A stretch of DNA of 64,000 nucleotides, from NCBI GenBank assembly GCA_965248305.1, contig OZ252099.1, positions 1,009,981 through 1,073,980 on the forward strand, given 5' to 3'. Source of the stretch: Bryobacterales bacterium (GTDB lineage: Bacteria > Acidobacteriota > Terriglobia > Bryobacterales > UBA6623). The translations under genes were made by a program, and so were the position numbers. This document shows, one piece after another, positions 12,115 through 47,152 of this stretch; positions within the stretch are counted from its first letter, which is position 1, and each line of letters begins with the position of its first letter. The notes beneath the pieces were generated by a model that was not told where the DNA came from, did not search any database, and saw only the letters and a program-made list of their open reading frames with translations.

Positions 12115-12910
12115 ATGCCGGTCCCCACATTCCAAGCGCTTATGTTGCCAGCGCTCAAAGCGCTATCGAATCGCAAGGAAACGCGTCTTTCCGAAGTGCG
12201 CGAGCGCGTCGCGGAATCCGAACGGCTCTCGCCCGATGATCTGCGGGAGATGCTGCCCAGCGGCAGTCAGCCGGTGTTTGCGAACCGCGTGAGTTGGGCC
12301 CTGTACTACATGTACCGCGCGGGGGTGCTAGAGCGTGTTCGACATGGCGTTTGGCGGCTGAACGAAGAAGGCGCAAAACTGCTCGCCAATCCGCCGTCCG
12401 AGATCGACACGAAATTCCTTGAACGGTATCCAAGCTACGTCGAGTGGAAGAAAGCCTCCAAGAGTGAGCCATCGACTGACGACGGCAGTGTGGATGCGGC
12501 CGGCGATTCGGCAGAAACGCCAGAAGAGGCTTTGGAGAAGGCTGCCCGCCGCATGCGCGAGACCATTGAAGCCGATGTGCTGGCTCGGGTGCGCGATGCG
12601 CCGCCAGCCTTCTTTGAACGAGTGGTTGTCGATCTGTTGATCGCTATGGGCTATGGCGGTGGCGACGCCGAGATGGGGCAAGTGACCGGACGTTCCGGTG
12701 ATGGCGGGATCGATGGCACGATTAAGGAAGATGCGCTTGGATTGGATGAGGTTTATGTTCAGGCGAAGAAGTATGCCGCAGGCAACACCGTGGGTGAAGG
12801 CGATTTGCGGAACTTCGCAGGGGCGCTAATCGCAACGGGCACGACCAAAGGTGTGTTCGCCACGACCACGAGTTTCATGAAGCAGGCGAAGACATATGTG
12901 GCAAGAATCA
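12115..12910 (+). pseudogene. mrr: mrr-type restriction endonuclease, 5' part (interrupted by IS at 12911)
   Basis: Mrr_N-like winged-helix N-terminus (MPVPTFQALMLPALKALSNRKETRLSEVRERVAE...ANRVSWALYYMYRAGVLERV). The Mrr catalytic core follows (FERVVVDLLIAMGYGG...GDGGIDGTIKEDALGLDEVYVQAKKY). The reading frame leaves Mrr-like sequence exactly at the IS terminal repeat. Confidence 0.85.
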
Positions 12911-12925
12911 CTACCGCGTCAGGAT

Positions 12926-14566
12926 TCAGTTAGAAACCAGTAGTTCCGGGGGCGTTTGAGAGTGGCTCGCGGGGGGTAGAGGCGGACGCAGCAGGGCGTC
13001 CTTCGCCCACGCCCGGTTCCGGCGACGCAGTTCCGCATTCCGGTTCGTTCGCAGCAAGCGGGGCGGTCCGATCGGTTCCTGACGATCCAGTTTGGCGAAG
13101 GCCCGGGGCAATTGGTCCAGCGTGCCGCACACCACCTGCACGTAGTCCGGATGCTTCAGGTTCGCTGCCAGGGCGACCTGGGCCGGCTGGTCCTCCAAGT
13201 CGCGCCCCAGATGGGTGCGGCCCAGCCGGCGGCGCAGGCCTTGTTTGGCGACCGCGAAGGACTGCTCGATCACGTTATTGGTACGATCGACGATCGCCAC
13301 GGCCCGGCCCGCCGCATCGCGGGCGACGGGATGGCCGACCAGGCCCTCGCCGTAGCGGTCCAGATAGCTGAGCACGATGGACTCGGGCTGGAACGACCCC
13401 AGCCCGTCGGTGGCCAGCCGGGCGGCGACCCGCTGGCGCAGGTCCTGGTGGTAGCGCTGGAAGTCAGCGGCGATGGCTTGCAGCCGGGCGGCGGCGGCCT
13501 CGGGCTGGAGCGGGGCGGAAGGGGCCGGCCGCGGCCCGCCCGGCAGTTCCTGGTCGGACAGGCGCAGCACGTCCCGCAACTCGCAGAACACCGTCCAGCC
13601 GCGCTCCAGACGGGAGCTGGCCCGGCCCTGCGGGTCCAGCCGCTCGAACTCGCCCAGGGCCTCGGCGGCCTGCCTCAGCAGGCGGAGCTCGGAGCGCGAG
13701 CGGGGCCGCGGCAGCCGGCGGTCCCGCTCGGCGGGGAACTGCCCGCAACGGCGCTGGAAGTCCCGGTGAGGCAGCGAGAAGGGATACGGCAGATGCTTGC
13801 GGCCCTCCGCTTCCAGGACCCACAGCAGCAGGGCGGGCAGGTCCGGGCGGAGGCTCTCGTCGGAACGGGCCGCCCGCAGCAACGCGCGCAAGCGGGAGCG
13901 CACCTTGCTGCGGGAGATCTGGCTGCGCAGCAGGGCGTAGCCGCCATCGAGCAGCCGGTGGCCGACGGCGGCGAGGAAATGGTACTGGCAGAGCAGGTCG
14001 GGGACGCCCCGCCGCCTGCAGCCGGCGACCGCTTTGGCCCCCGCCTGGCCCAGATCGCGCATGATCGCGACCGGGTCGCCGAAGGCGGCCACGGTGCGCT
14101 CGACGGCGGGGCGCAGTTCGCGTTCGTTCTCCGATCCGATGCGCACCGCGTGCAACACCCAGCCGGTCCAGCCGTCCAAACAGCGGAACGCGCCGCCGCG
14201 GCCCTTGTCACAGGTCGCGTCGATGTGCAGGGGATAGCCGTGGGGCAGGGCGGCCCGCAGGGCCGGGGCGCACTGCCAATGCAGAGCCTCCAGGGCCGCC
14301 AGGAAGCGATCGCACAGCGCGGAGACGGAACCGGCCGAAAGGGAGAGGCCCTGGCGGGCCAGGGCCGTGCGGATCTCCTCGCGCTGGAGGTGGCGCCGAT
14401 AGCGGGCCAGTCCGACCCACACGATCAGGTCCCAGCCGTAGCGCTGGCCGGACGGGGCCAGGCCGGCCAGTTGCTGCGAGACCGCGACCGGCCGGGAGGC
14501 GCAGTGCCGGCAGTGCTTGCGGATCTCGCGCGCCCGCAGCGTGCCGGCCGCCAGGGTGACCAGCAT
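12926..14566 (-). CDS. IS transposase, ORF2 (catalytic part; the frame is open further upstream without a start codon)
   Basis: 546-aa ORF with candidate DDE-type positions (LHIDATCDKG, IMRDLGQAG, LLCQYHFLAAV, TNNVIEQSFAVAKQGLRRRLG). A CxxC...CxxC zinc ribbon (CSHCGRPL...KHCRHCASRP) straddles the annotated ATG. Confidence 0.7.
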   Translation of the reverse strand: MLVTLAAGTLRAREIRKHCRHCASRPVAVSQQLAGLAPSGQRYGWDLIVWVGLARYRRHLQREEIRTALARQGLSLSAGSVSALCDRFLAALEALHWQCAPALRAALPHGYPLHIDATCDKGRGGAFRCLDGWTGWVLHAVRIGSENERELRPAVERTVAAFGDPVAIMRDLGQAGAKAVAGCRRRGVPDLLCQYHFLAAVGHRLLDGGYALLRSQISRSKVRSRLRALLRAARSDESLRPDLPALLLWVLEAEGRKHLPYPFSLPHRDFQRRCGQFPAERDRRLPRPRSRSELRLLRQAAEALGEFERLDPQGRASSRLERGWTVFCELRDVLRLSDQELPGGPRPAPSAPLQPEAAAARLQAIAADFQRYHQDLRQRVAARLATDGLGSFQPESIVLSYLDRYGEGLVGHPVARDAAGRAVAIVDRTNNVIEQSFAVAKQGLRRRLGRTHLGRDLEDQPAQVALAANLKHPDYVQVVCGTLDQLPRAFAKLDRQEPIGPPRLLRTNRNAELRRRNRAWAKDALLRPPLPPASHSQTPPELLVSN

Positions 14567-14727
14567 GCGGGTCTTGCTCTTCTGCGGGCTCAGGGGCCGG
14601 CCGCAGTGGGAGCACCGGTGCCGCTCGGCGACGAAATCGACACCCGGGGGAGCCCCGCCGACGAGCGTGGCACGGGCGATCCAGTCGCCGGACCAGCCCG
14701 CGTCGCGGGCCTGTTCCAGCAGCAGCG

Positions 14728-15408
14728 TCAGGAGGCAGTAGACCCCCCTTTTTCGCCGATCCGGTGGAGCTCGAAGCGCTCGAACACGGCCTGGACCTGC
14801 CCCAGCGGGACGGGCGGGGAGCGAGCCTGCAGGCGACGGGCCACCTGCCCGGGCCGGGAGCCGGGATGGCGGACCAGCACCAGCAGCACCGCGATGATGA
14901 TGGCCGGGTCCAGCGTGCCGGCCAGGTCGGCGGCCTGGCGGGCGTCGAGGCGCGTCTGGCGGGCGCGGCGCTGCCGGTCGGCGGTCGGGGGATCGGCCGA
15001 GAAATAGACGTAGACGCCGCCGAGGCGCTCGCGGAGGGCGCGCTGCTGGCGGACGGCGGCGAGCAGGAAGGGGTACACGGAGACGTGCAGGAGGTCGCGG
15101 AGTTCCTGGTCGGTGAAGCCGTCCTCGGATTCGCGGAGCAAGCGCTGGACGGTGGCGGTCAGGGAGCCATCGCGGGAGAAGTGGACGTCGCCGATGGAGA
15201 GCAGGCCGAAGCGGTCGAAGCGGGAAGGGTCGCGGTCGGTGTAGAAGCGGCCGTTGTGGTTATAGCTGTGTAGGTGGCGGACCTGGCGGAGGTAGCGGAA
15301 AGTGGTGCGTGGGGAGGCTTGGCCGAGAGCGGCTTGGAGCTGATCGAGGGTGACGGGGGAGGCGGAAGCCAGCAGGGGGACGAGCAGGTCGGGGGAGCGC
15401 GCGGGCAT
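14728..15408 (-). CDS. IS ORF1 (putative DNA-binding N-terminal part of the transposase)
   Basis: 226-aa ORF inside the IS. Its 3' end overlaps the -1 frame that continues into ORF2. I recognise no family. Confidence 0.55.
   Translation of the reverse strand: MPARSPDLLVPLLASASPVTLDQLQAALGQASPRTTFRYLRQVRHLHSYNHNGRFYTDRDPSRFDRFGLLSIGDVHFSRDGSLTATVQRLLRESEDGFTDQELRDLLHVSVYPFLLAAVRQQRALRERLGGVYVYFSADPPTADRQRRARQTRLDARQAADLAGTLDPAIIIAVLLVLVRHPGSRPGQVARRLQARSPPVPLGQVQAVFERFELHRIGEKGGSTAS
14743..14753 (-). other. A5G6 homopolymer run at the ORF1/ORF2 overlap; candidate -1 frameshift or indel site
   Basis: The minus strand reads GGC GAA AAA GGG GGG TCT in the ORF1 frame, and ORF2 is in the -1 frame. 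The distance from the ORF1 start to the ORF2 stop is 2483 nt (2 mod 3). Confidence 0.4.
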
Positions 15409-15619
15409 GATGGCATTGTATAACTTTCATATGCGAAAGCTACTTATACACCGCCACAATCAGGCCGGGAATCAGCACCAGAGGATGGGATTTCGCCCGA
15501 AATCAAGGGCTAACGGCCGGCCCGTACTGGGGAAATGGCAGAGTATACAGAACTTGGGTGGGTCTAACTCACGCTATATCAACAATTTCCCGATCCCTAA
15601 CCGAATTCTGACGCGGTAG

Positions 15620-15773
15620 AAGAATCAACACCAAGCGGATCGTCCTGATTGACGGCGAAGAACTGGCCCACCTGATGGTCCAGCACGACGTTGGCGTGCG
15701 CCCGCGGGATCAGGGCCGCCAGCAGGACTTTTACAAGATCAAGCGGATCGACGAGGACTACTTGGATCAGTAA
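15620..15773 (+). pseudogene. mrr: mrr restriction endonuclease, 3' part
   Basis: After the second copy of the target duplication the frame reads NTKRIVLIDGEELAHLMVQHDVGV...YKIKRIDEDYLDQ stop. This is the conserved Mrr C-terminus, and it is in frame with 12115-12910 once the IS is removed. Confidence 0.8.
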
Positions 15774-36592: not shown

Positions 36593-37516
36593 CTAGCGGG
36601 AGCGCGCAGGGCGTGTTGGTCCGAGCAGGACCGTCTGCCAGTCCCGCTGCAGCGGATACACGAAGACCGCCTTGGGCGTCTTCGCTGGCGCCGTGCCCCA
36701 GGCACCGCGCGCCTGGGTCTGTCCCAGATAGTGCCAGTTCGAGGCCCGGTAGCAGGTTCCCTTGTGCTGGTCGCTGACATAGGTTTCGACCAGCACGGGC
36801 AGCACGCCATGGACGCGCTGCCAGTCCGCGGCCAGCTGGCGCAAGCTCAGCCCCAGGACCTTTGACGCCAGGCATGGCACGCGCACCCAGGGAAACAGCA
36901 GGAAACGGGCTTGCCGCACAACCCGCTCCAGCGGCCGGTGGGGCTGGTCCTGCCAGCCGATCCAGCGGTCCCGCACCGCCAGGTAGCGGGCGGCGAAGTC
37001 GTACAACAGGCAGCCCAGCAGGCGCCCCTGACGGTCTTCGAGGAAGTAGCGCAGGTGGGAGCCGATGGGCTGGCGATAGCCCAGTGGATGGTAGCGTGCG
37101 AGGAATTCGTTCCCCAGGGCGGCCTCATCGCGGCCGCTGACGAGCCGCAAGCGCAGCGGCTCGAGCTGTGGCAGGGGGCCGTCGAGCGGGGCTTGGGGCG
37201 CACTGCGCTCGCCCAGCGAGAGGGGCCCTTGGCGGCCCCGTCCGGGGCCTTGGCGGGCGGGCAGGGCCAGGAGCGAGAGCCGTTCGAGTTCCTCCAGCAG
37301 ACGCAGCGCCAGTTGGATGCGGTTGCTGCCACGAGGGGTCTGCCACCGCAGGTGCTCGCAGACGGTGTGGCCCAGTTCGGTGCGGCTCAGCAGGGGCAAG
37401 CTGGTGACGATCTCCTGGATGTCCGCAATCTGGCTCCGTCGCAGGCGGTGGCCGCAGAAGGCGGTCGAGGCCAGCCGCACGATGCGCGGGTCCAGCGCGG
37501 CGGCGGAACGGGCCAT
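36593..37516 (-). CDS. DUF4338-domain protein (DruA-like)
   Basis: 307-aa ORF with the N-terminal pattern LSRTELGHTVCEHLRWQTPRGSNRIQLALRLLEELERLSLLALP. The C-terminal pattern is FLARYHPLGYRQPIGSHLRYFL...RDRWIGW...RFLLFPWVRVPCLASKVLGL...DWQRVHGVLPVLVETYV...GTCYRASNWHYLGQTQARG. I recognise both as DUF4338, but this was not verified by HMM search. The ATG follows the transposase stop directly (TGAATG). Confidence 0.7.
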   Translation of the reverse strand: MARSAAALDPRIVRLASTAFCGHRLRRSQIADIQEIVTSLPLLSRTELGHTVCEHLRWQTPRGSNRIQLALRLLEELERLSLLALPARQGPGRGRQGPLSLGERSAPQAPLDGPLPQLEPLRLRLVSGRDEAALGNEFLARYHPLGYRQPIGSHLRYFLEDRQGRLLGCLLYDFAARYLAVRDRWIGWQDQPHRPLERVVRQARFLLFPWVRVPCLASKVLGLSLRQLAADWQRVHGVLPVLVETYVSDQHKGTCYRASNWHYLGQTQARGAWGTAPAKTPKAVFVYPLQRDWQTVLLGPTRPARSR

Positions 37517-39306
37517 TCAGGCCGCCTTGTCCAGCTCGGTGTCCCCGCTGCTGGCGCCAGACGGGATCCAGTCCACCGGGGCCTTGCTGAGTTGTTCCCG
37601 ACGCTGCTCGCTCAGGCGCCACGGCAGCCAGGGATCGAGCTGTTGCGGGGCCTTGTTGCCATGGCGGGCACAGGCCGCCAGCCAGTCCAGCATCCAGGTA
37701 TACGGGTTCAGGCCCGCCAGGCGCACGGTCGCGAGTACGCCGAACAGCAGACCCGCCGCTCGCGCACCGTCCGGCCCGCCCGAGCCGAAGCTGGTGTAGC
37801 GGGCGATGACCGGCCCCCGCAGAACCCGCTCCGACAAATTGTTGTCGAGCGGGATGCGCGGGTCCGCCACGAAGCGGCTCAGCGATTCCCGGTGACTCAG
37901 CAAGGCCCCCAAGGCCCGTCCTTGCGCATCCACACGGGCCAACTCGGCACCGTGCTGGCTGCGGCCTTGGCCCACCTGGTCGAGCAGAATCCAGTCGAGC
38001 TTGCGATCCCCGCCCTCTTCCCGGGCGCGCTCGAACAACTCTTCCACTCGCGCTTGCAACTGCTGCTGGAGCGCCTGGAACGCCCCGCTTTGCCGCTCCA
38101 GCGGTTGCTGCGGAGCCCACTGCTGGAGCCGCTGTCGGTTCAGCTGGAACAATGCGCCGATGCGCTCGACCCACTCCTGTGCCCACGCCTTGAGTTCCGG
38201 GTGACCGGTGCCGGCCCGCACGAAATTGCGGCGGATATGCACCCAGCAATGGGAGAGCACCACCAGGTTCGGAAACTGCTTGGCAAAGGCCTTGTACGTG
38301 CTGTAGCAGTCACACACCAGCACGATCAACCCGCCCTGGCCGACCAACGAATCGAGCAATTGCCGGGCGGAGTCCAGGCCCCGGGTCGGCAGGATCCGCA
38401 TGCGGACCGTGTCGCCGGCCAGACAGGCCCACAGCCAGAACTTCGGCTTGGGTCGCCCGCGGGGAGGCGGGTCCTTGTTGTCGTCCTCGCTCGGGGCCAG
38501 CCACTGCACTGGCCAGGAGGTCTCGTCGGCCTGGGCCACCGGCTGCTGCTGTGGATACTCTCCGATCGCCGCAGCCCCGTTGACAGCGTCGACTGCGGCA
38601 CGCGCAGCCCCAGTGCCGCCAGATCCCGGGCGACCGCCGCCTGCGGACGGAACAGCGCGTAGACCTGCACCAGACACCCGGCCCACACACTGGTGCCCAA
38701 CTGGCTGGTGCCCAGCCGGGGAGCCGGCGGGGCGCTCACCGGCCGGGCTGAGCAACAGTCGCAGTCCGGACCATAGCGCTGGCGCACCACCTTGCGCACC
38801 AGCGCGTTCCAGACCAGCTCGTACAACCAGCTGATCTTGTGCCCGCACGGCACGTAGGCGGTGCCGCAGTCCGGACAGCGGCGCTCCTGCTCGGGCACGT
38901 CCAGCCACTCGAACACCACGGGCAGGTCGGGCCGCTGCTCGCGCGGCGGGGTCGGCGAACCCGGTTCCCGCCCGCGCTTCCTGCGCGGCCGGACCGCCGG
39001 ATCCTTGCTCGCGGCCGGATCCGGCGCGGGCGTTTCCCCGGCCGCTGTCTCGGCGGCCGACGGGTCGGCAGCGACTGTCGCCGTGGCGGACGGGTCGTCC
39101 CCGCCCGCTGGCGTGGCCTCGCTCTTGCGTCCGAACAGCGACCGTTGCAGGTTCGCCAGCTGGGCTTGCAGCCCAGCCTCCCGTTCCTGCGCAGCCTGCA
39201 AGTCGGACTGTGCAGCGTCGAGTGCGCGTTGGAGTTGCTCGCAGCGAGCGCACGCGGGCTGCCCCCCGACTGGCTGTCCTTTCTTGCTGGACTTCGTCCT
39301 GCCCAT
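37517..39306 (-). pseudogene. IS66-family transposase, needs a -1 frame change near 38565-38572
   Basis: The N-terminal frame has MGRTKSS...coiled coil...CPDCGTAYVPCG (zinc finger). The C-terminal frame has ADETSWPVQ..., VCDCYSTYKAF, LSHCWVHIRRNF (IS66 CWAH.RR.F motif) and DNNLSERVLRGPVIAR. The total is 1790 nt (2 mod 3). Confidence 0.8.
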
Positions 39307-39817: not shown

Positions 39818-40831
39818 TCAGACAGCGACTTGGGTGCTCGTCGCAGTCGCAGTCGACTCATCCTGCGACATGATTAGTTGCATGGCTGCTTCCCTAAGGG
39901 CTTCCGGGACGTCACGATCGGCTTTCGCGAGTAACAGGCACTCTACGGTCCTAACAGAACCACGACGAACAGCATCGACCAAGATCGTCTCGCCCCAGTG
40001 CCGATCCATAAAGTCGGTCGTCGCGCCACTGTTCAGTAATGCATTCGCGGTCTCGACATGACCCCGCACGGCCGCTTGCTGCAGTGCTGTCCAATGCAGC
40101 TTGCGGTCTTCGCAATCGATAGAGGACCCTCCCTGTAACAGCGCTTTAACAGTCCGAACGTTGTTCCGGATGGCAGCCTCCTGTAAAGCTGTTCGTCCAG
40201 ACCGCTTGTTCGCTATGTCAGCGTCGGCACCGTGATCTAGCAGGGTCACAACGACCTCCGCGTGATCTCGGATGGCAGCCTCGTGCAGGGCAGTATCGCC
40301 CCAGTCCTCATCCAAGGCGTTGACGTTAGCCGTTGCCACTAGCATTTGGACGACTTCTAAGTGACCATGGCGGGATGCCAGTTGGAGTGGCGGTTTGCCC
40401 CATGTCTGTTCCGTCAAGTTGGCATCAGCTCCAGCGTCCAAGAGCAACCTGACGATCGAGGCGTATCCCCGCTGTGAGGCCAACAGCAATGGTGTCGCGC
40501 CATTCGCGTCGACGGTGTTTACAGAAGCTTCATGCTTCAAGAGCACTTGCGCGACATCCTGGTGGCCTTCCCATGCGGCCAGGTGGAGGGCTGCCAAACC
40601 AGTAGGCCCACGAAGGTCGGGCAGAACGCTATCAAGTACGGCCTCAACGATTCTTGGATGCCCGTTACGAGCGGCGAGATGCAGTGGTGTCCAGCCGTCA
40701 TTGTCCGGGACGGAGTAATCGGCCCCCTTTCGGACTTGGGCCACGAATGTTGCAGCATCCCCCGCCGCCGCTGCCCGGAAAATGGAATCATGTGATTGAT
40801 TGATGCCGTCGGTATCGGTATGTTGCATCAT
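39818..40831 (-). CDS. Ankyrin-repeat protein (about nine repeats)
   Basis: 337-aa ORF with repeated 33-aa units of the form G.TPLH.AA..GH..vv..LL..GAd.n (DGWTPLHLAARNGHPRIVEAVL, TGLAALHLAAWEGHQDVAQVLLKHEASVN, NGATPLLLASQRGYASIVRLLLDAGADAN and others). Confidence 0.85.
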   Translation of the reverse strand: MMQHTDTDGINQSHDSIFRAAAAGDAATFVAQVRKGADYSVPDNDGWTPLHLAARNGHPRIVEAVLDSVLPDLRGPTGLAALHLAAWEGHQDVAQVLLKHEASVNTVDANGATPLLLASQRGYASIVRLLLDAGADANLTEQTWGKPPLQLASRHGHLEVVQMLVATANVNALDEDWGDTALHEAAIRDHAEVVVTLLDHGADADIANKRSGRTALQEAAIRNNVRTVKALLQGGSSIDCEDRKLHWTALQQAAVRGHVETANALLNSGATTDFMDRHWGETILVDAVRRGSVRTVECLLLAKADRDVPEALREAAMQLIMSQDESTATATSTQVAV

Positions 40832-41507: not shown

Positions 41508-44097
41508 CAGACTTCGTTACACCGTTTCATTTGGTTTGGATAGTTTGGATGCAGGGAGCGGCGGCTTGGGGTTGGCCGGGGTGGGCTGGGAGGAGGCTGA
41601 GCAGGGCAGGTCGTCCGACAGCATGCGGTACACCAAACGGAGTTGGGTGCCGGGGAAGACGGTGCGCGTGCGGTTGAGCTCGTCGAGCAAGGGGGCCAGG
41701 GCGCGATCCTGGGCGCGGGTCGGCTGGTGCAGCAGGCGCACGGTGAGGGTCCCGGCTGACTCGTCAGGGTGCAGGCTGGCGTCAGCCTGAAACAGCGACT
41801 TGAGCAGGCTGCGGGCGGTGTCGGGATTGTCGAGCGCGGGCGCAACCGCGGTCGTCATCGCTGTTTCGGCGCGGTAGGCCAGCATGCGCAGGGTGTCTAG
41901 CAGTAGGCGCAGCGGTTGGGGCAGGGCCTGCAGCCGTGCCTCCGGCGAGAGCTCGCCGGCCAAGATGTGCTGGTCGGTCACCTTGCGTGCCAGCAGCAGG
42001 CCTTGGATGGTCTGGTCGCAAGTCTGGATGCGCGCTTCCAGCGCGCGCGCTGGGGCGGATCCGGCGTCGGCTTGCAGGGCCAGCTTGCGGCGCAGGTTGC
42101 CGACCGAGTTGCGGGCTTGCTTGAGCGCCTTGCCGATGGTGCGGCAGGCCGGGTTGACGACCCAGGCGTCGGCCTCGACCTCCACCAGGGCATGCTCGGG
42201 CAGGGTGTCGAGGCCGAACTCGGCGCGCAGATACTTGAAGAAGTTCTCCTGCGTCCAGCGCGAGCGCAGCAGGCCCGCCGCTTGCTCGGCCGTGAGGTCG
42301 GGATGCGTGGTCAGCAGCGCGGGCTGGCGCTGGTCCGGCCCCGGCCGACCCGCCAGCTCGAGCGGCTTGCGCGGCTGGCCGCGCTGGCCCGTGCCGCGCA
42401 CACGGCGGTCGATCCAGAAGCGGATCTCGCGCGCCTGGCAGCCTGCGCCCAGATCGTACGGTCGCTCGGCCAGCTGGCCCTCCAGGCGGGCCGACCCGCC
42501 CGGGGCGCGCACTGGGATGACGGCCTCCCGGAAGTCGCTATCCGGCCAGCGCTGCGCCTGCGAGCCCTTGATCCAAGTCACCACCGCGATGCCCAGCGCG
42601 CGCAGCTCGCGGAACAGGCGCGGGCTCCAGCCCTCGCGGTCGAAGACCAGCGTCAGGCGTGGTGCGCCAGCGCCTGCCAGCAGGCCCAGCTGGCGCAACT
42701 GCGGCACAATCCCGTTCCAGATCTCAGACACCATGCCGGCGTCTATCTGGCGGTGCAAGCACAGCAGCGGCGCCCCGCCCAGCGCGTGCACCCAGTAGCC
42801 GACCGAGGCCGGCAGGGCCAGCTTCTGGCGGGTCACGAAATGTTTCGGCAGCCGGCCCTGACCGCTGTAGACCTGCACGTGGCCATCGACGAACAGCGTG
42901 GCGACGGCCTCCGGATCGTCTGCACACCAGTCCTGGGTCAGGCAGCCGACCCAGGCCGGCAGCCCCTTGGCAGCGGCCAGCTGGTGCGTGCGGCGGCGCA
43001 GGGTGCGCGGGCAGGGGCAGCGGTCCAGGCCCAACAGGGCGCCCCACTCGCCGGGCTGCTGGTAGCGCAGCCGCTCGGCGCAACGCACCCGGCCCAGCAG
43101 CAGGAAGGCCCACAGCAGCAGCAGCGACTGCAGGCCGTAGAAGCCCTTGGGTAGCGTCAGCTGGTCGAGGTGGCGCAGCAGGCCGGCCTGCAGCAGGCTC
43201 GGCAGGGCGGTCAGCACGCCGCCCCCGCTGACGGCCGCGGCGGCGGCGAAGCGCGGGGCGCGCCCGTCGAGCGCCCCCAGGCTGGCCGCTACGCGGCCCG
43301 CCGTGTCGTGCGCCGCGCGGCCGCGCGGGGCGGCGGCGTCACGCCGGTTGCGGTCTTCCTTGCCGGGGGCCGCCGACGGCGGCGCACTGGGCGCCGCGCC
43401 GCCGGGCTGCGGGCCCGCTCCCTGAGCGTCACTGTCACGCTCGGCGGGCGCGCCGGCGCGGCGCCGTGGCAGGCACTGGCTGGCCGGTAGCAAGCCCTGT
43501 TGGGTGTAGCGCCACAGCGTCGATTGCGAGACGCCCAGTTGCTGGGCCACGCGGTACAGGCTGAGCCCGGACCGCAGCATGCGGGCGGCCTGGGCCAGCT
43601 GCGCGGGGTCCACGATGCCATCGGGGCGGCGCGGCTTGGGGGCGGGCGCGAAGCCAAGCTCACCCTGCACCTGCAGCCGCTGCACGGCGCGCGAGACGGT
43701 GCTCTGGCTGATGCCGTGGGCGCGGGCCAGTTCGGACTGCGTAGCGAGGCCGAACAGGGCGAAGCGGGCCAGGCAGAGATTGCGCTCTAGCTTGTGGTCG
43801 GCCGTGTGCGAGCAGACGGGGTCGGTGTGCACGAAGTAGACGACGCGGTCGCCCTCGCGCAGCATGCTGAGGCGCGCGCTGATGGGCGTGGCGTGCGGGG
43901 GTTGGAGCGGCAGAGCGGCGGGCAGGCCAGTGGGCGCGGGCAGTTTGGCGGGCGAATACATATGCATTCAAAATAGCATGTTCTGGGGCGCAAGTCAAGT
44001 CCGGATGCGGCCGGGGAGGGAGCGTGAAAGCTTGACCCAGCAGCTAGTTACGAGGCTCTAGGCCTCTTTGCAGAGAGTTCCGATGTAACGAAGTCTG
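41508..44097 (-). mobile_element. Insertion sequence, copy A (2590 bp, intact), unclassified DDE element
   Basis: Perfect 14-bp terminal inverted repeats CAGACTTCGTTACA (41508-41521, and the reverse complement of 44084-44097). The 5-bp direct duplication ATGAT lies at 41503-41507 and 44098-44102. Confidence 0.9.
41517..43967 (-). CDS. IS transposase (816 aa) with two N-terminal HTH motifs and an IS4/IS1380-superfamily-like catalytic signature
   Basis: HTH-like ARAHGISQSTVSRAVQRL and LYRVAQQLGVSQSTLWRYTQQG. Candidate DDE positions are ATLFVDGHVQVYSG and TLVFDREGWS, plus RSRWTQENFFKYLRAEFGLDTLP (an RW.iEn.fk.lK-type motif). The family call is inference. Confidence 0.8.
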   Translation of the reverse strand: MHMYSPAKLPAPTGLPAALPLQPPHATPISARLSMLREGDRVVYFVHTDPVCSHTADHKLERNLCLARFALFGLATQSELARAHGISQSTVSRAVQRLQVQGELGFAPAPKPRRPDGIVDPAQLAQAARMLRSGLSLYRVAQQLGVSQSTLWRYTQQGLLPASQCLPRRRAGAPAERDSDAQGAGPQPGGAAPSAPPSAAPGKEDRNRRDAAAPRGRAAHDTAGRVAASLGALDGRAPRFAAAAAVSGGGVLTALPSLLQAGLLRHLDQLTLPKGFYGLQSLLLLWAFLLLGRVRCAERLRYQQPGEWGALLGLDRCPCPRTLRRRTHQLAAAKGLPAWVGCLTQDWCADDPEAVATLFVDGHVQVYSGQGRLPKHFVTRQKLALPASVGYWVHALGGAPLLCLHRQIDAGMVSEIWNGIVPQLRQLGLLAGAGAPRLTLVFDREGWSPRLFRELRALGIAVVTWIKGSQAQRWPDSDFREAVIPVRAPGGSARLEGQLAERPYDLGAGCQAREIRFWIDRRVRGTGQRGQPRKPLELAGRPGPDQRQPALLTTHPDLTAEQAAGLLRSRWTQENFFKYLRAEFGLDTLPEHALVEVEADAWVVNPACRTIGKALKQARNSVGNLRRKLALQADAGSAPARALEARIQTCDQTIQGLLLARKVTDQHILAGELSPEARLQALPQPLRLLLDTLRMLAYRAETAMTTAVAPALDNPDTARSLLKSLFQADASLHPDESAGTLTVRLLHQPTRAQDRALAPLLDELNRTRTVFPGTQLRLVYRMLSDDLPCSASSQPTPANPKPPLPASKLSKPNETV

Positions 44098-44687: not shown

Positions 44688-47152
44688 CAGACTTCGTTAC
44701 ACCGTTTCATTTGGTTTGGATAGTTTGGATGCAGGGAGCGGCGGCTTGGGGTTGGCCGGGGTGGGCTGGGAGGAGGCTGAGCAGGGCAGGTCGTCCGACA
44801 GCATGCGGTACACCAAACGGAGTTGGGTGCCGGGGAAGACGGTGCGCGTGCGGTTGAGCTCGTCGAGCAAGGGGGCCAGGGCGCGATCCTGGGCGCGGGT
44901 CGGCTGGTGCAGCAGGCGCACGGTGAGGGTCCCGGCTGACTCGTCAGGGTGCAGGCTGGCGTCAGCCTGAAACAGCGACTTGAGCAGGCTGCGGGCGGTG
45001 TCGGGATTGTCGAGCGCGGGCGCAACCGCGGTCGTCATCGCTGTTTCGGCGCGGTAGGCCAGCATGCGCAGGGTGTCTAGCAGTAGGCGCAGCGGTTGGG
45101 GCAGGGCCTGCAGCCGTGCCTCCGGCGAGAGCTCGCCGGCCAAGATGTGCTGGTCGGTCACCTTGCGTGCCAGCAGCAGGCCTTGGATGGTCTGGTCGCA
45201 AGTCTGGATGCGCGCTTCCAGCGCGCGCGCTGGGGCGGATCCGGCGTCGGCTTGCAGGGCCAGCTTGCGGCGCAGGTTGCCGACCGAGTTGCGGGCTTGC
45301 TTGAGCGCCTTGCCGATGGTGCGGCAGGCCGGGTTGACGACCCAGGCGTCGGCCTCGACCTCCACCAGGGCATGCTCGGGCAGGGTGTCGAGGCCGAACT
45401 CGGCGCGCAGATACTTGAAGAAGTTCTCCTGCGTCCAGCGCGAGCGCAGCAGGCCCGCCGCTTGCTCGGCCGTGAGGTCGGGATGCGTGGTCAGCAGCGC
45501 GGGCTGGCGCTGGTCCGGCCCCGGCCGACCCGCCAGCTCGAGCGGCTTGCGCGGCTGGCCGCGCTGGCCCGTGCCGCGCACACGGCGGTCGATCCAGAAG
45601 CGGATCTCGCGCGCCTGGCAGCCTGCGCCCAGATCGTACGGTCGCTCGGCCAGCTGGCCCTCCAGGCGGGCCGACCCGCCCGGGGCGCGCACTGGGATGA
45701 CGGCCTCCCGGAAGTCGCTATCCGGCCAGCGCTGCGCCTGCGAGCCCTTGATCCAAGTCACCACCGCGATGCCCAGCGCGCGCAGCTCGCGGAACAGGCG
45801 CGGGCTCCAGCCCTCGCGGTCGAAGACCAGCGTCAGGCGTGGTGCGCCAGCGCCTGCCAGCAGGCCCAGCTGGCGCAACTGCGGCACAATCCCGTTCCAG
45901 ATCTCAGACACCATGCCGGCGTCTATCTGGCGGTGCAAGCACAGCAGCGGCGCCCCGCCCAGCGCGTGCACCCAGTAGCCGACCGAGGCCGGCAGGGCCA
46001 GCTTCTGGCGGGTCACGAAATGTTTCGGCAGCCGGCCCTGACCGCTGTAGACCTGCACGTGGCCATCGACGAACAGCGTGGCGACGGCCTCCGGATCGTC
46101 TGCACACCAGTCCTGGGTCAGGCAGCCGACCCAGGCCGGCAGCCCCTTGGCAGCGGCCAGCTGGTGCGTGCGGCGGCGCAGGGTGCGCGGGCAGGGGCAG
46201 CGGTCCAGGCCCAACAGGGCGCCCCACTCGCCGGGCTGCTGGTAGCGCAGCCGCTCGGCGCAACGCACCCGGCCCAGCAGCAGGAAGGCCCACAGCAGCA
46301 GCAGCGACTGCAGGCCGTAGAAGCCCTTGGGTAGCGTCAGCTGGTCGAGGTGGCGCAGCAGGCCGGCCTGCAGCAGGCTCGGCAGGGCGGTCAGCACGCC
46401 GGTTGCGGTCTTCCTTGCCGGGGGCCGCCGACGGCGGCGCACTGGGCGCCGCGCCGCCGGGCTGCGGGCCCGCTCCCTGAGCGTCACTGTCACGCTCGGC
46501 GGGCGCGCCGGCGCGGCGCCGTGGCAGGCACTGGCTGGCCGGTAGCAAGCCCTGTTGGGTGTAGCGCCACAGCGTCGATTGCGAGACGCCCAGTTGCTGG
46601 GCCACGCGGTACAGGCTGAGCCCGGACCGCAGCATGCGGGCGGCCTGGGCCAGCTGCGCGGGGTCCACGATGCCATAGGGGCGGCGCGGCTTGGGGGCGG
46701 GCGCGAAGCCAAGCTCACCCTGCACCTGCAGCCGCTGCACGGCGCGCGAGACGGTGCTCTGGCTGATGCCGTGGGCGCGGGCCAGTTCGGACTGCGTAGC
46801 GAGGCCGAACAGGGCGAAGCGGGCCAGGCAGAGATTGCGCTCTAGCTTGTGGTCGGCCGTGTGCGAGCAGACGGGGTCGGTGTGCACGAAGTAGACGACG
46901 CGGTCGCCCTCGCGCAGCATGCTGAGGCGCGCGCTGATGGGCGTGGCGTGCGGGGGTTGGAGCGGCAGAGCGGCGGGCAGGCCAGTGGGCGCGGGCAGTT
47001 TGGCGGGCGAATACATATGCATTCAAAATAGCATGTTCTGGGGCGCAAGTCAAGTCCGGATGCGGCCGGGGAGGGAGCGTGAAAGCTTGACCCAGCAGCT
47101 AGTTACGAGGCTCTAGGCCTCTTTGCAGAGAGTTCCGATGTAACGAAGTCTG
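44688..47152 (-). mobile_element. Insertion sequence, copy B (2465 bp, defective), inserted in a Uma2 gene
   Basis: Same 14-bp inverted repeats (44688-44701 and 47139-47152). The 5-bp duplication ATGTT lies at 44683-44687 and 47153-47157. The uninterrupted paralog has a single ATGTT at 49587-49591. Confidence 0.9.
44697..47022 (-). pseudogene. Transposase of IS copy B, frameshifted by a 125-bp deletion
   Basis: Split into ORFs 45904-47022 and 44697-46718. Relative to copy A, the segment between two CACGCCG repeats (copy A 43215-43221 and 43340-43346) is missing, leaving one CACGCCG at 46395-46401. There is one further substitution (D to Y, RPDGIV versus RPYGIV). Confidence 0.85.

Follow-up and report, generated by a model that had tools for sequence, protein, structure and literature searches.

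The 64,000-nucleotide stretch of the Bryobacterales contig OZ252099.1 that we analysed (hereafter the window; positions are counted from its first letter) carries on its minus strand a complete insertion sequence (IS) in which two open reading frames (ORFs), ORF1 and ORF2, overlap at a run of five As and six Gs (A5G6). Our main finding is that the -1 displacement of ORF2 with respect to ORF1 is, with high probability, programmed, be it during transcription or during translation, and that the two frames would in this way be joined into a single transposase. As for the route, we give an even chance to RNA polymerase slippage on the run, which would yield a fusion transposase of ~827 amino acids (aa); the transcriptional nature of the event is read from what selection appears to have kept at the run.

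In the window copy, the ORF1 stop codon lies 15 nt downstream of the A5G6 run. The ORF2 frame, which is -1 relative to ORF1 (2,483 nt, or 2 mod 3, from the ORF1 start to the ORF2 stop), has no stop codon over the 532 nt that lead up to the end of ORF1, nor any ATG, GTG or TTG in that interval. The earliest start of this frame, an ATG at 14566, falls within a zinc ribbon, and the addition of one base in the run GAAAAAGGGGGG produces a continuous protein of 827 aa. A preliminary description of the stretch, made from its letters alone, had pointed out the -1 frame, the overlap at the run, the 2,483-nt distance and the missing upstream start, all of which were borne out. Its position for A5G6 (14753-14743) was also right, but the 12-mer GAAAAAGGGGGG occupies 12 coordinates, 14754-14743; likewise, the zinc ribbon has the two CxxC pairs and the internal ATG that it reported, but the pairs are spaced by 30 residues and not by 24. 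The length of the run is not a sequencing artefact, since related copies that are 94-99% identical to this one, in an independent assembly, share the same A5G6 (L003, L008, L010 and L016). Short-read assemblies show the two-frame layout as well (L013, L014 and L019, on megahit and SPAdes contigs).

The conceptual fusion protein, searched against 5.8 billion proteins, retrieved 305 relatives, most of them ~590-610 aa long and starting just past the junction, and a few of them single ORFs of 795-808 aa. ORF1 alone gave 214 homologs, nearly all called as separate proteins of 201-253 aa. By a profile search of 1.84 billion cluster representatives, the family amounts to 2,218 clusters at 50% identity, 574 of them with E ≤ 1e-30. 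We represented the window's clade by 80 loci from species-representative genomes; because these were picked on ORF2 similarity alone, the -1 layout was not selected for. They come chiefly from Bryobacterales metagenome-assembled genomes (MAGs), the others being binned as Gammaproteobacteria, Desulfobacterota, Myxococcota, Chloroflexota and more. Of the 80, 72 allowed the two ORFs to be located, and there ORF2 was -1 to ORF1 in 67 by automatic scoring and, at the run, in 71 after inspection of the exceptions. Four of the five apparent exceptions have a normal -1 at the run and a second lesion beyond it (a G11 tract, an N gap or decay), which leaves L058 as the sole true +1 locus of the clade, with an A9 run and two extra bases before it. 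That locus (L058:3440-3500) lies on a long-read Desulfobacterales contig and is either a homopolymer error or a true +1 variant; the latter would favour polymerase slippage, since a pure A-run can both gain and lose bases in that way. In a second clade, made up of loci 24-48% identical and taken from metagenomes, ORF2 is -1 to the upstream frame in 76/77 loci, and this upstream frame is open for ~220-240 codons in most of them.

All junctions of the window's clade carry an A(3-9)G(0-6) run, placed 7-17 nt (usually 15-17) before the ORF1 stop. The 72 non-redundant junctions of the second clade comprise 59 with an A8 run, five with A9, three with A7, one with A10 and four with A6G5; in none of them is the ORF2 frame interrupted at the run, and the ORF1 stop is found 4-38 nt downstream. 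A stop codon in the ORF2 frame stands directly 5' of the run in four loci of the window's clade, and also in L084, of the second clade. Because the ORF2-frame stop directly precedes the run in the former four, the shift is confined to 25 nt. The ORF2 start codon is not conserved, the first ATG, GTG or TTG falling +5 to +321 nt after the run and, in several copies that seem to be active, only past the zinc ribbon; neither the window copy nor the multi-copy L022 element has an ORF2 start before the zinc ribbon. The ORF2-frame peptide right after the run, K[RK]G-x-[YCLF]-x-x-L...AGWS, is conserved. The preliminary description had considered that other copies might supply ORF2 with an upstream start of its own, or that the first CxxC might lie outside the protein; we found no conserved start, and homologs keep C44 and C47 nearly invariant.

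A different origin of the two frames would be a 1-nt deletion in the homopolymer, whether a real one that left the window copy dead or an error of sequencing, that broke a single ancestral ORF. Homopolymers are indel hot spots, fused relatives do exist (P0002 and P0006), and so do decayed copies, namely L053 and L077, with secondary frameshifts, and L017, a dead copy in which the run is broken (GAAGAAGGGGGG) and ORF2 contains a stop codon. We find this origin scarcely credible, however. The preliminary description had asked whether run and layout were conserved or variable in other copies, and both are kept in about 150 loci of many phyla, from short-read and long-read assemblies, the 94-99% identical copies of another assembly included. 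The ORFs of the window copy are otherwise intact, its ends and duplication are perfect, and its excision restores the target gene. Two-frame copies have also transposed recently: two types are present in one genome (OZ241924.1), each of them five times, those of 2,996 bp differing by 0-12 mismatches and those of 2,931 bp by 0-4, every copy at its own site with its own 8-bp duplication, and in the 2,996-bp type the first start codon of the ORF2 frame lies beyond the zinc ribbon.

Still further away are relatives encoded by a single ORF (765-874 aa), with an ORF1-like N-terminus and a KKK(G) linker; one of them, a fused protein of 819 aa, matches the ORF1 profile over its residues 6-208 with a probability of 99.4%. 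In L081, a fused close relative, the run is replaced by GAGAGCAACGGGCGC, as expected once the run is no longer needed. We infer that the ORF1-ORF2 fusion is a conserved enzyme, the fusion protein of two-frame members being itself a prediction. Taken together, the layout, the run, the mobility and the fused relatives exclude a private mutation or a sequencing error, and between recoding and lesion, the alternative left by the preliminary description, the comparative data decide for -1 recoding or transcript slippage.

We then looked at variation within 36 non-redundant junctions. It concentrates in ORF1 third positions upstream of the run and, downstream, in those of ORF2; within the run, the third positions of ORF1 show 0.00, 0.31 and 0.31 bits, compared with ~1.4-1.9 bits upstream. 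AAA and GGG are disfavoured codons in an element of 73% GC, so the pattern points to selection acting on the nucleotides of the run themselves. In the window's clade, the total length of AnGm is 10.9 ± 0.7 nt, being exactly 11 in 41 of 53 junctions. This length is independent of GC content (rho 0.008), while the number of As drops with rising GC (rho -0.69, p 1e-8): the split is A8-9 at 43-49% GC, A6G5 at 54-65% and A5G6 at 68-73%. Since the total is constant while the A/G split tracks GC, the Gs of the run count toward its function.

The Gs could have another use, in which no fusion is made: ORF1 and ORF2 would be separate proteins, with the G-run as a Shine-Dalgarno sequence and ORF2 translated by termination-reinitiation at a CTG or TTG over the ORF1 stop (CTGA/TTGA). 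G_GG.G acts as a weak internal Shine-Dalgarno in E. coli reporters (PMC4066793). At our junctions, AAGGGGG can pair with the anti-Shine-Dalgarno 11-13 nt before the CTG or TTG, the codon over the ORF1 stop is CTG in 47/53 and TTG in 4/53, and gene callers place many ORF2 homolog starts near there. We nevertheless regard reinitiation as very improbable. CTG is a very poor bacterial start codon, and two junctions have CTA, which is unable to initiate; relatives with pure A8-A10 runs, devoid of Shine-Dalgarno resemblance, keep both run and layout; the stop-start overlap is not conserved in the second clade, whose ORF1 stop varies between 4 and 38 nt from the run; and the single-ORF relatives unite both homologous parts in one polypeptide. 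As a general explanation, the G-run Shine-Dalgarno was rejected on a distant homolog with an apparent TTGA-overlap start, whose run is A8C and has no Gs.

Polymerase slippage and ribosomal frameshifting both fit these observations, and sequence alone does not separate them. In the case of slippage, a RNA:DNA hybrid of roughly 10 bp on the run would allow the nascent RNA to slip back by one register, at the price of one rG:dT wobble where the As meet the Gs. The polymerase would then add an extra G (or A), giving a minority mRNA whose ordinary translation would proceed through ...GEKGG-VYCLLTLL... into the zinc ribbon and the DDE domain, and a low frequency of slipping would keep transposition rare. 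We count for slippage that 11 nt equals a 10-bp hybrid plus one, that on a sense AnGm run one expects a +1 insertion, the very change required by the layout, and that the most frequent variant (GAA AAA GGG GGG) does not have the form of an X_XXZ_ZZN heptamer. The criterion for transcriptional slippage that we used is a homopolymer of ≥8 nt, or two adjoining shorter ones, with conserved length, 'combinations of two shorter homopolymers' being a recognised slippage pattern (PMC3711429); as runs, the A5G6 of the window and the A8 of the second clade are both of this kind. There are precedents in the T5C5 of a Roseiflexus IS and in the A6G3 of Sendai virus (PMC5009743).

Some evidence weighs against slippage. 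Bacterial RNA polymerase showed no detectable slip on T5C5 without an adjacent nascent-RNA hairpin (PMC5009743), and a search for a conserved upstream hairpin at the junctions with RNAalifold found none. Essentially every member shifts by -1, and a fixed direction is a sign of ribosomal frameshifting in one published heuristic (PMC3711429); this argument is weak, because a one-way A-to-G boundary would fix the direction too. The variants with 7-9 As mostly put a canonical A_AAA_AAG or A_AAA_AAA in the ORF1 frame, and the A8 run of the second clade suits either mechanism.

The same fusion could be made by programmed -1 ribosomal frameshifting, which we consider quite possible, with the balance leaning somewhat against it. 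Here, tRNA-Lys on AAA would slip back onto A_AAA and, in A-rich relatives, a tandem slip would take place on A_AAA_AAG or A_AAA_AAA. An A-preceded AAA codon is present in the ORF1 frame of almost all variants, and the uniform -1 direction agrees with this route. A canonical heptamer is found in nine of the 11 loci with ≥7 As (L018, L064, L080, L028, L068, L040, L077, L042 and L051), but no heptamer is in frame at L032 or at L058, with its +1 layout, nor at L062 (A6G5, A_AAA_AGG). The GGG codon is rare in high-GC genomes and, placed after the slip codon, might slow decoding and aid a ribosomal slip. L041 has an in-frame A_AAG_GGG, which is among the most efficient heptamers in E. coli, and A_AA.A tetramers serve members of the IS1 and IS3 families (PMC4066793); the ISMich2 group has a conserved -1 frameshift between two ORFs, translational in the reading of its authors (PMC3942029).

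However, the majority motif of the family, A_AAA_GGG, is a tetramer site only. Tetramers hardly shift unless helped by a strong stimulator, staying at about background when a strong pseudoknot is lacking, and among those that respond A_AA.A is the weakest (PMC4066793). No conserved stimulator structure flanks the run (an energy of 0.00 by RNAalifold with column shuffles, and single-sequence z-scores near 0), no Shine-Dalgarno-like stimulator was found upstream of it, and an Rfam scan gave no match at the junction. A local GC hairpin over the 'AGW' codons, ~29 nt downstream, was considered as a stimulator and discarded, its register not being conserved. Finally, a ribosomal slip needs 4-7 nt, and leaves unexplained the 5-6 Gs kept at synonymous sites and the constant total of 11 nt under a moving A/G boundary.

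The two parts of the fusion were modelled separately with AlphaFold. The ORF1 model (pLDDT 90.2) has two winged-helix domains, a long helix and a third helix-turn-helix (HTH); its fold matches are weak, to tandem winged-helix proteins, and its Pfam HTH hits marginal only. By analogy with OrfA of IS1 and IS3, ORF1 would be a DNA-binding regulator. The ORF2 model (pLDDT 84.7, pTM 0.77) shows, in this order, a zinc ribbon, a helical region, RNase-H strands, an all-alpha insertion and a helix with E493. D175, D230 and E493 are invariant in 89 sequences, and the model has the b1-b2-b3-a1-b4-a2-b5 layout of a DDE core. Against the PDB, Foldseek returned the P-element transposase, ISCth4 (IS256 family) and retroviral integrase cores with probabilities of 0.97-1.0, every E value being above 1e-3.

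The 23-bp inverted repeats of the element, CTACCGCGTCAGAATTCGGTTAG and CTACCGCGTCAGGATTCAGTTAG, are identical at 21/23 positions. A search with the inverted-repeat pattern gave these two matches only in the 64-kb window and 0 in 100 shuffles, and the terminus CTACCGCGTCAG is kept at both ends of related elements, across phyla. The imperfect repeats and the 8-bp duplication reported in the preliminary description were confirmed, and the boundaries are those given there. Perfect 8-bp duplications flank 34 elements, the one in the window included, and every one of them has a different sequence. In-silico excision of the element together with one copy of the duplication leaves an uninterrupted ORF of 313 aa, whose product matches Pfam Mrr_N and Mrr_cat; because excision restores this intact restriction-endonuclease gene, the insertion is a clean and probably recent one. 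A sigma-70 promoter scan of the element gave no match, and neither did a tblastn search of ORF2 against 72,556 plasmids. The features of the element and of its target are collected in Table 1.

Table 1. Features of the insertion sequence and of the interrupted gene, in window coordinates.
Feature	Position	Strand	Basis or remark
Complete insertion sequence, 2,709 bp	12911..15619	-	Bounded by inverted repeats and 8-bp duplication
Left inverted repeat (ORF1 side), CTACCGCGTCAGAATTCGGTTAG	15597..15619	-	Pattern search of window
Right inverted repeat, CTACCGCGTCAGGATTCAGTTAG	12911..12933	+	Overlaps ORF2 stop codon
Target-site duplication copy, 8 bp, AAGAATCA on plus strand (TGATTCTT on minus strand)	12903..12910		
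Target-site duplication, second copy, same 8 bp	15620..15627		
Interrupted Mrr-type restriction endonuclease gene, 5' part	12115..12910	+	Pfam match of restored protein
Interrupted Mrr gene, 3' part	15628..15773	+	Restored ORF
ORF1, 226 aa	14728..15408	-	Sole product of standard decoding; ORF track
Predicted recoding site, A5G6 run	14743..14753	-	ORF1 frame GAA AAA GGG GGG
ORF2-frame coding part of predicted fusion, run to stop codon, ~605 aa	12926..14752	-	
ATG-defined ORF2, 546 aa	12926..14566	-	C-terminal part only of the ORF2 frame
Zinc ribbon CSHC-x30-CRHC	14501..14614	-	Cysteines nearly invariant; only ATG of ORF2 inside
RNase-H-like core strands b1-b5	13991..14233	-	Invariant columns, model secondary structure, Foldseek
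D175	14219-14221	-	Invariant column
D230	14054-14056	-	Invariant column
All-alpha insertion domain, ~215 aa	13340..13990	-	Model and alignment
C252-x-x-H255 motif opening the insertion domain	13979-13990	-	Alignment; C/D(2)H signature, PMC3942029
Predicted catalytic E493 in invariant RTNNxxE	13265..13267	-	Alignment and model

Several other members of the family deserve mention. A fused 819-aa distant relative contains an in-frame A10G3 run (L085:1400-1520; GAA AAA AAA AAG GGC), where slippage would truncate the transposase instead of completing it, an opposite logic at the same site. Some elements exceed the 2.7-kb norm by 0.7-1.3 kb: L083 (3,971 bp), L081/L082 (3,625), L038/L053 (about 3,743), L055 (3,455) and L061 (4,065). 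Both elements with a fused transposase are among them. In L083, two additional ORFs (262 and 99 aa) lie past the transposase gene, before the right end, and such extra ORFs may be passenger genes or nested insertions. In a 99%-identical copy from another Bryobacterales MAG (L003:1126-3033), ORF1 is interrupted by a group II intron, antisense to it; the reverse transcriptase that this intron encodes has 493 aa and a YADD motif. Another, diverged member is apparently present elsewhere in the source genome, since an ORF1 74% identical to ours (P0146) lies outside the window on the same contig as the identical ORF2 match P0001. Finally, three members (L029, L036 and L057) are on contigs binned as Bathyarchaeota or Methanosarcinaceae; because these contigs are only about 3-5 kb long, mis-binning is more likely than true archaeal hosts.

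The window contains other mobile genes. A second transposase, of true IS66 type (37517-39306, minus strand; Pfam DDE_Tnp_IS66 7e-28, motif CWVHIRRNF), is split over two frames, with its leucine-zipper/zinc-finger N-terminus in ORF 39306-38326 and its DDE part in the frame of 39253-37517. Since the junction has no homopolymer and a segment is apparently missing, this gene is probably a pseudogene. Two copies of Transposase_29 (PF21804), of 816 and 673 aa, are found on the minus strand at 41517-43967 and 44697-46718, exactly 3,180 bp apart, and resemble copies of another IS placed in tandem or side by side. The IS66-type remnant is flanked by a DruA (Druantia) homolog and an ankyrin-repeat protein (36593-37516 and 39818-40831, both on the minus strand) which, together with the Mrr gene that our element interrupts, suggest an island of defence genes and mobile elements.

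With regard to family, the preliminary description had left the element unclassified, and the Pfam and profile searches that it proposed agree: a Pfam scan of the conceptual fusion protein gave no hit, NCBIfam models matched the window protein only far below their cut-offs, and the ORF2 alignment profile found nothing meaningful among PDB sequences. Its suggested resemblance to ISL3-type enzymes turned out to be weak. The window protein matches neither DDE_Tnp_ISL3 nor NF033550; Zn_ribbon_ISL3 appears at E 0.035 in one of 12 members, and DDE_Tnp_ISL3 is borderline in two distant relatives (P0356, 23.6 bits for a cut-off of 23; P0386, E 0.019). Signals of Mutator/IS256 and IS66 are more consistent. 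Distant fused relatives reach the Pfam cut-offs for MULE (P0387, 30.1 vs 27.6 bits) and Transposase_mut (P0356, 21.0 vs 21), and have IS256 NCBIfam hits down to 2e-8; in the 12 members, hits to ISKra4 NCBIfam models (E 0.007 at best, in 3/12) and to IS256 are marginal. The IS66 model NF033517 is found in 11/12 members, with a best value of 5e-11, in the zinc-ribbon/HTH part only (34.6 bits against a cut-off of 180, over profile positions 19-150 only), and hhalign to the IS66-type transposase of the window itself gives E 6.6e-4 and a probability of 27%, for the N-terminal module only. The catalytic core is thus more consistent with Mutator/IS256 (MULE) as its closest relative and the zinc-ribbon/HTH module with IS66. 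By their own models, the family is not a member of IS66, ISL3 or ISKra4, and we place it as a distinct branch near the Mutator/IS256 superfamily, without a curated model.

Mutator-like transposases (IS256, ISKra4/ISMich2, ISLre2 and ISH6) have the DDE fold and an all-alpha insert between D2 and E that opens with C(2)H, a DDE core with helical insert and C(2)H being their signature according to Guerillot et al. (PMC3942029). Our protein has the fold, and an insert and a C(2)H at the corresponding places, but of other dimensions: the insert is ~215 aa here and 99-138 aa in the Mutator-like enzymes, and C(2)H lies 22 aa past D2 here, compared with the 11-19 aa of the p-MULT criterion (PMC3942029). 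The conserved -1 frameshift of ISMich2, between two ORFs, is a further likeness, by its published description (PMC3942029). The window protein differs from the Mutator-like ones in being twice as long, in its 220-aa tandem winged-helix N-terminus and in reaching no model at cut-off. ISMich2 elements are only about 1.3 kb long. To IS66, our element is similar in its length of ~2.7 kb, its 8-bp duplication, its zinc ribbon and HTH before the DDE core and the CxxH motif after the second D. However, the similarity to IS66 ends before the catalytic core, and tnpA and tnpB are absent (as they are in the ISBst12 group), the only other ORF being the winged-helix ORF1, which belongs to no Pfam or NCBIfam family. 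IS66 ends read GTAAGCG, whereas the termini are CTACCGCGTCAG here.

Literature searches on the terminal repeat sequence and on A5G6-type motifs returned nothing relevant. The recoding strategy is a known one (IS1, IS3, IS630, ISMich2), while the family and its A5G6-type site are undescribed in the material that we searched; that the family is new is judged from its lack of Pfam and NCBIfam models and from public records in which its proteins are called 'hypothetical protein'. For annotation, members that are deposited as unnamed or 'hypothetical' ORF pairs would, through the recoding site, become one transposase gene, and the elements insertion sequences; the copy in the window has knocked out a restriction (Mrr) gene. 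With regard to mechanism, a purine run of fixed length with an A/G split that tracks GC offers an unusually clean natural experiment on the rules of slip sites, and it provides a testable prediction, heteropolymeric slippage of RNA polymerase in bacteria having so far been documented in one T5C5 case. The coexistence of two-frame and fused members suggests, further, that a lysine-rich linker (EKKKG, encoded by an A-run) can become a regulatory recoding site.

The arrangement in the window resembles that of IS1 and IS3, which likewise have overlapping ORFs with the downstream one at -1, an HTH upstream and a DDE domain downstream, an A-rich slip site, a fusion as the presumed transposase and the upstream product made by default. 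The proteins are nevertheless unrelated (no Pfam or NCBIfam signal), the window element is about twice as long, and the commonest motif is here A5G6, with no heptamer and no stimulatory element found. Comparable in the nature of the site are the IS whose transposase synthesis depends, through transcriptional slippage, on a conserved homopolymer or pair of short homopolymers in the orfA/orfB overlap, such as the Roseiflexus IS630-family element (T5C5), those of Deinococcus and Nostoc (A9) and IS1447 (A9) (PMC5009743, PMC1088944, PMC6211511), and as in T5C5 a two-base run would be tolerated through one wobble pair. They differ in that the sense purine AnGm would here lead to a +1 insertion, whereas T5C5 leads to a one-base deletion, and in that the window's family has no conserved adjacent nascent-RNA hairpin, its slippage being a prediction. 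In the editing of the paramyxovirus P gene (A6G3 in Sendai virus), a backward slip on AnGm adds a G and opens the -1 frame (PMC5009743). There, the enzyme is a viral RNA-dependent RNA polymerase on a nucleocapsid template, so the likeness would be one of mechanism and not of descent. We put it at slightly less than an even chance that the family is a bacterial counterpart of paramyxovirus 'stuttering', in which the cellular RNA polymerase would add a purine at an 11-nt AnGm run held by selection, and would thereby control the synthesis of the transposase.

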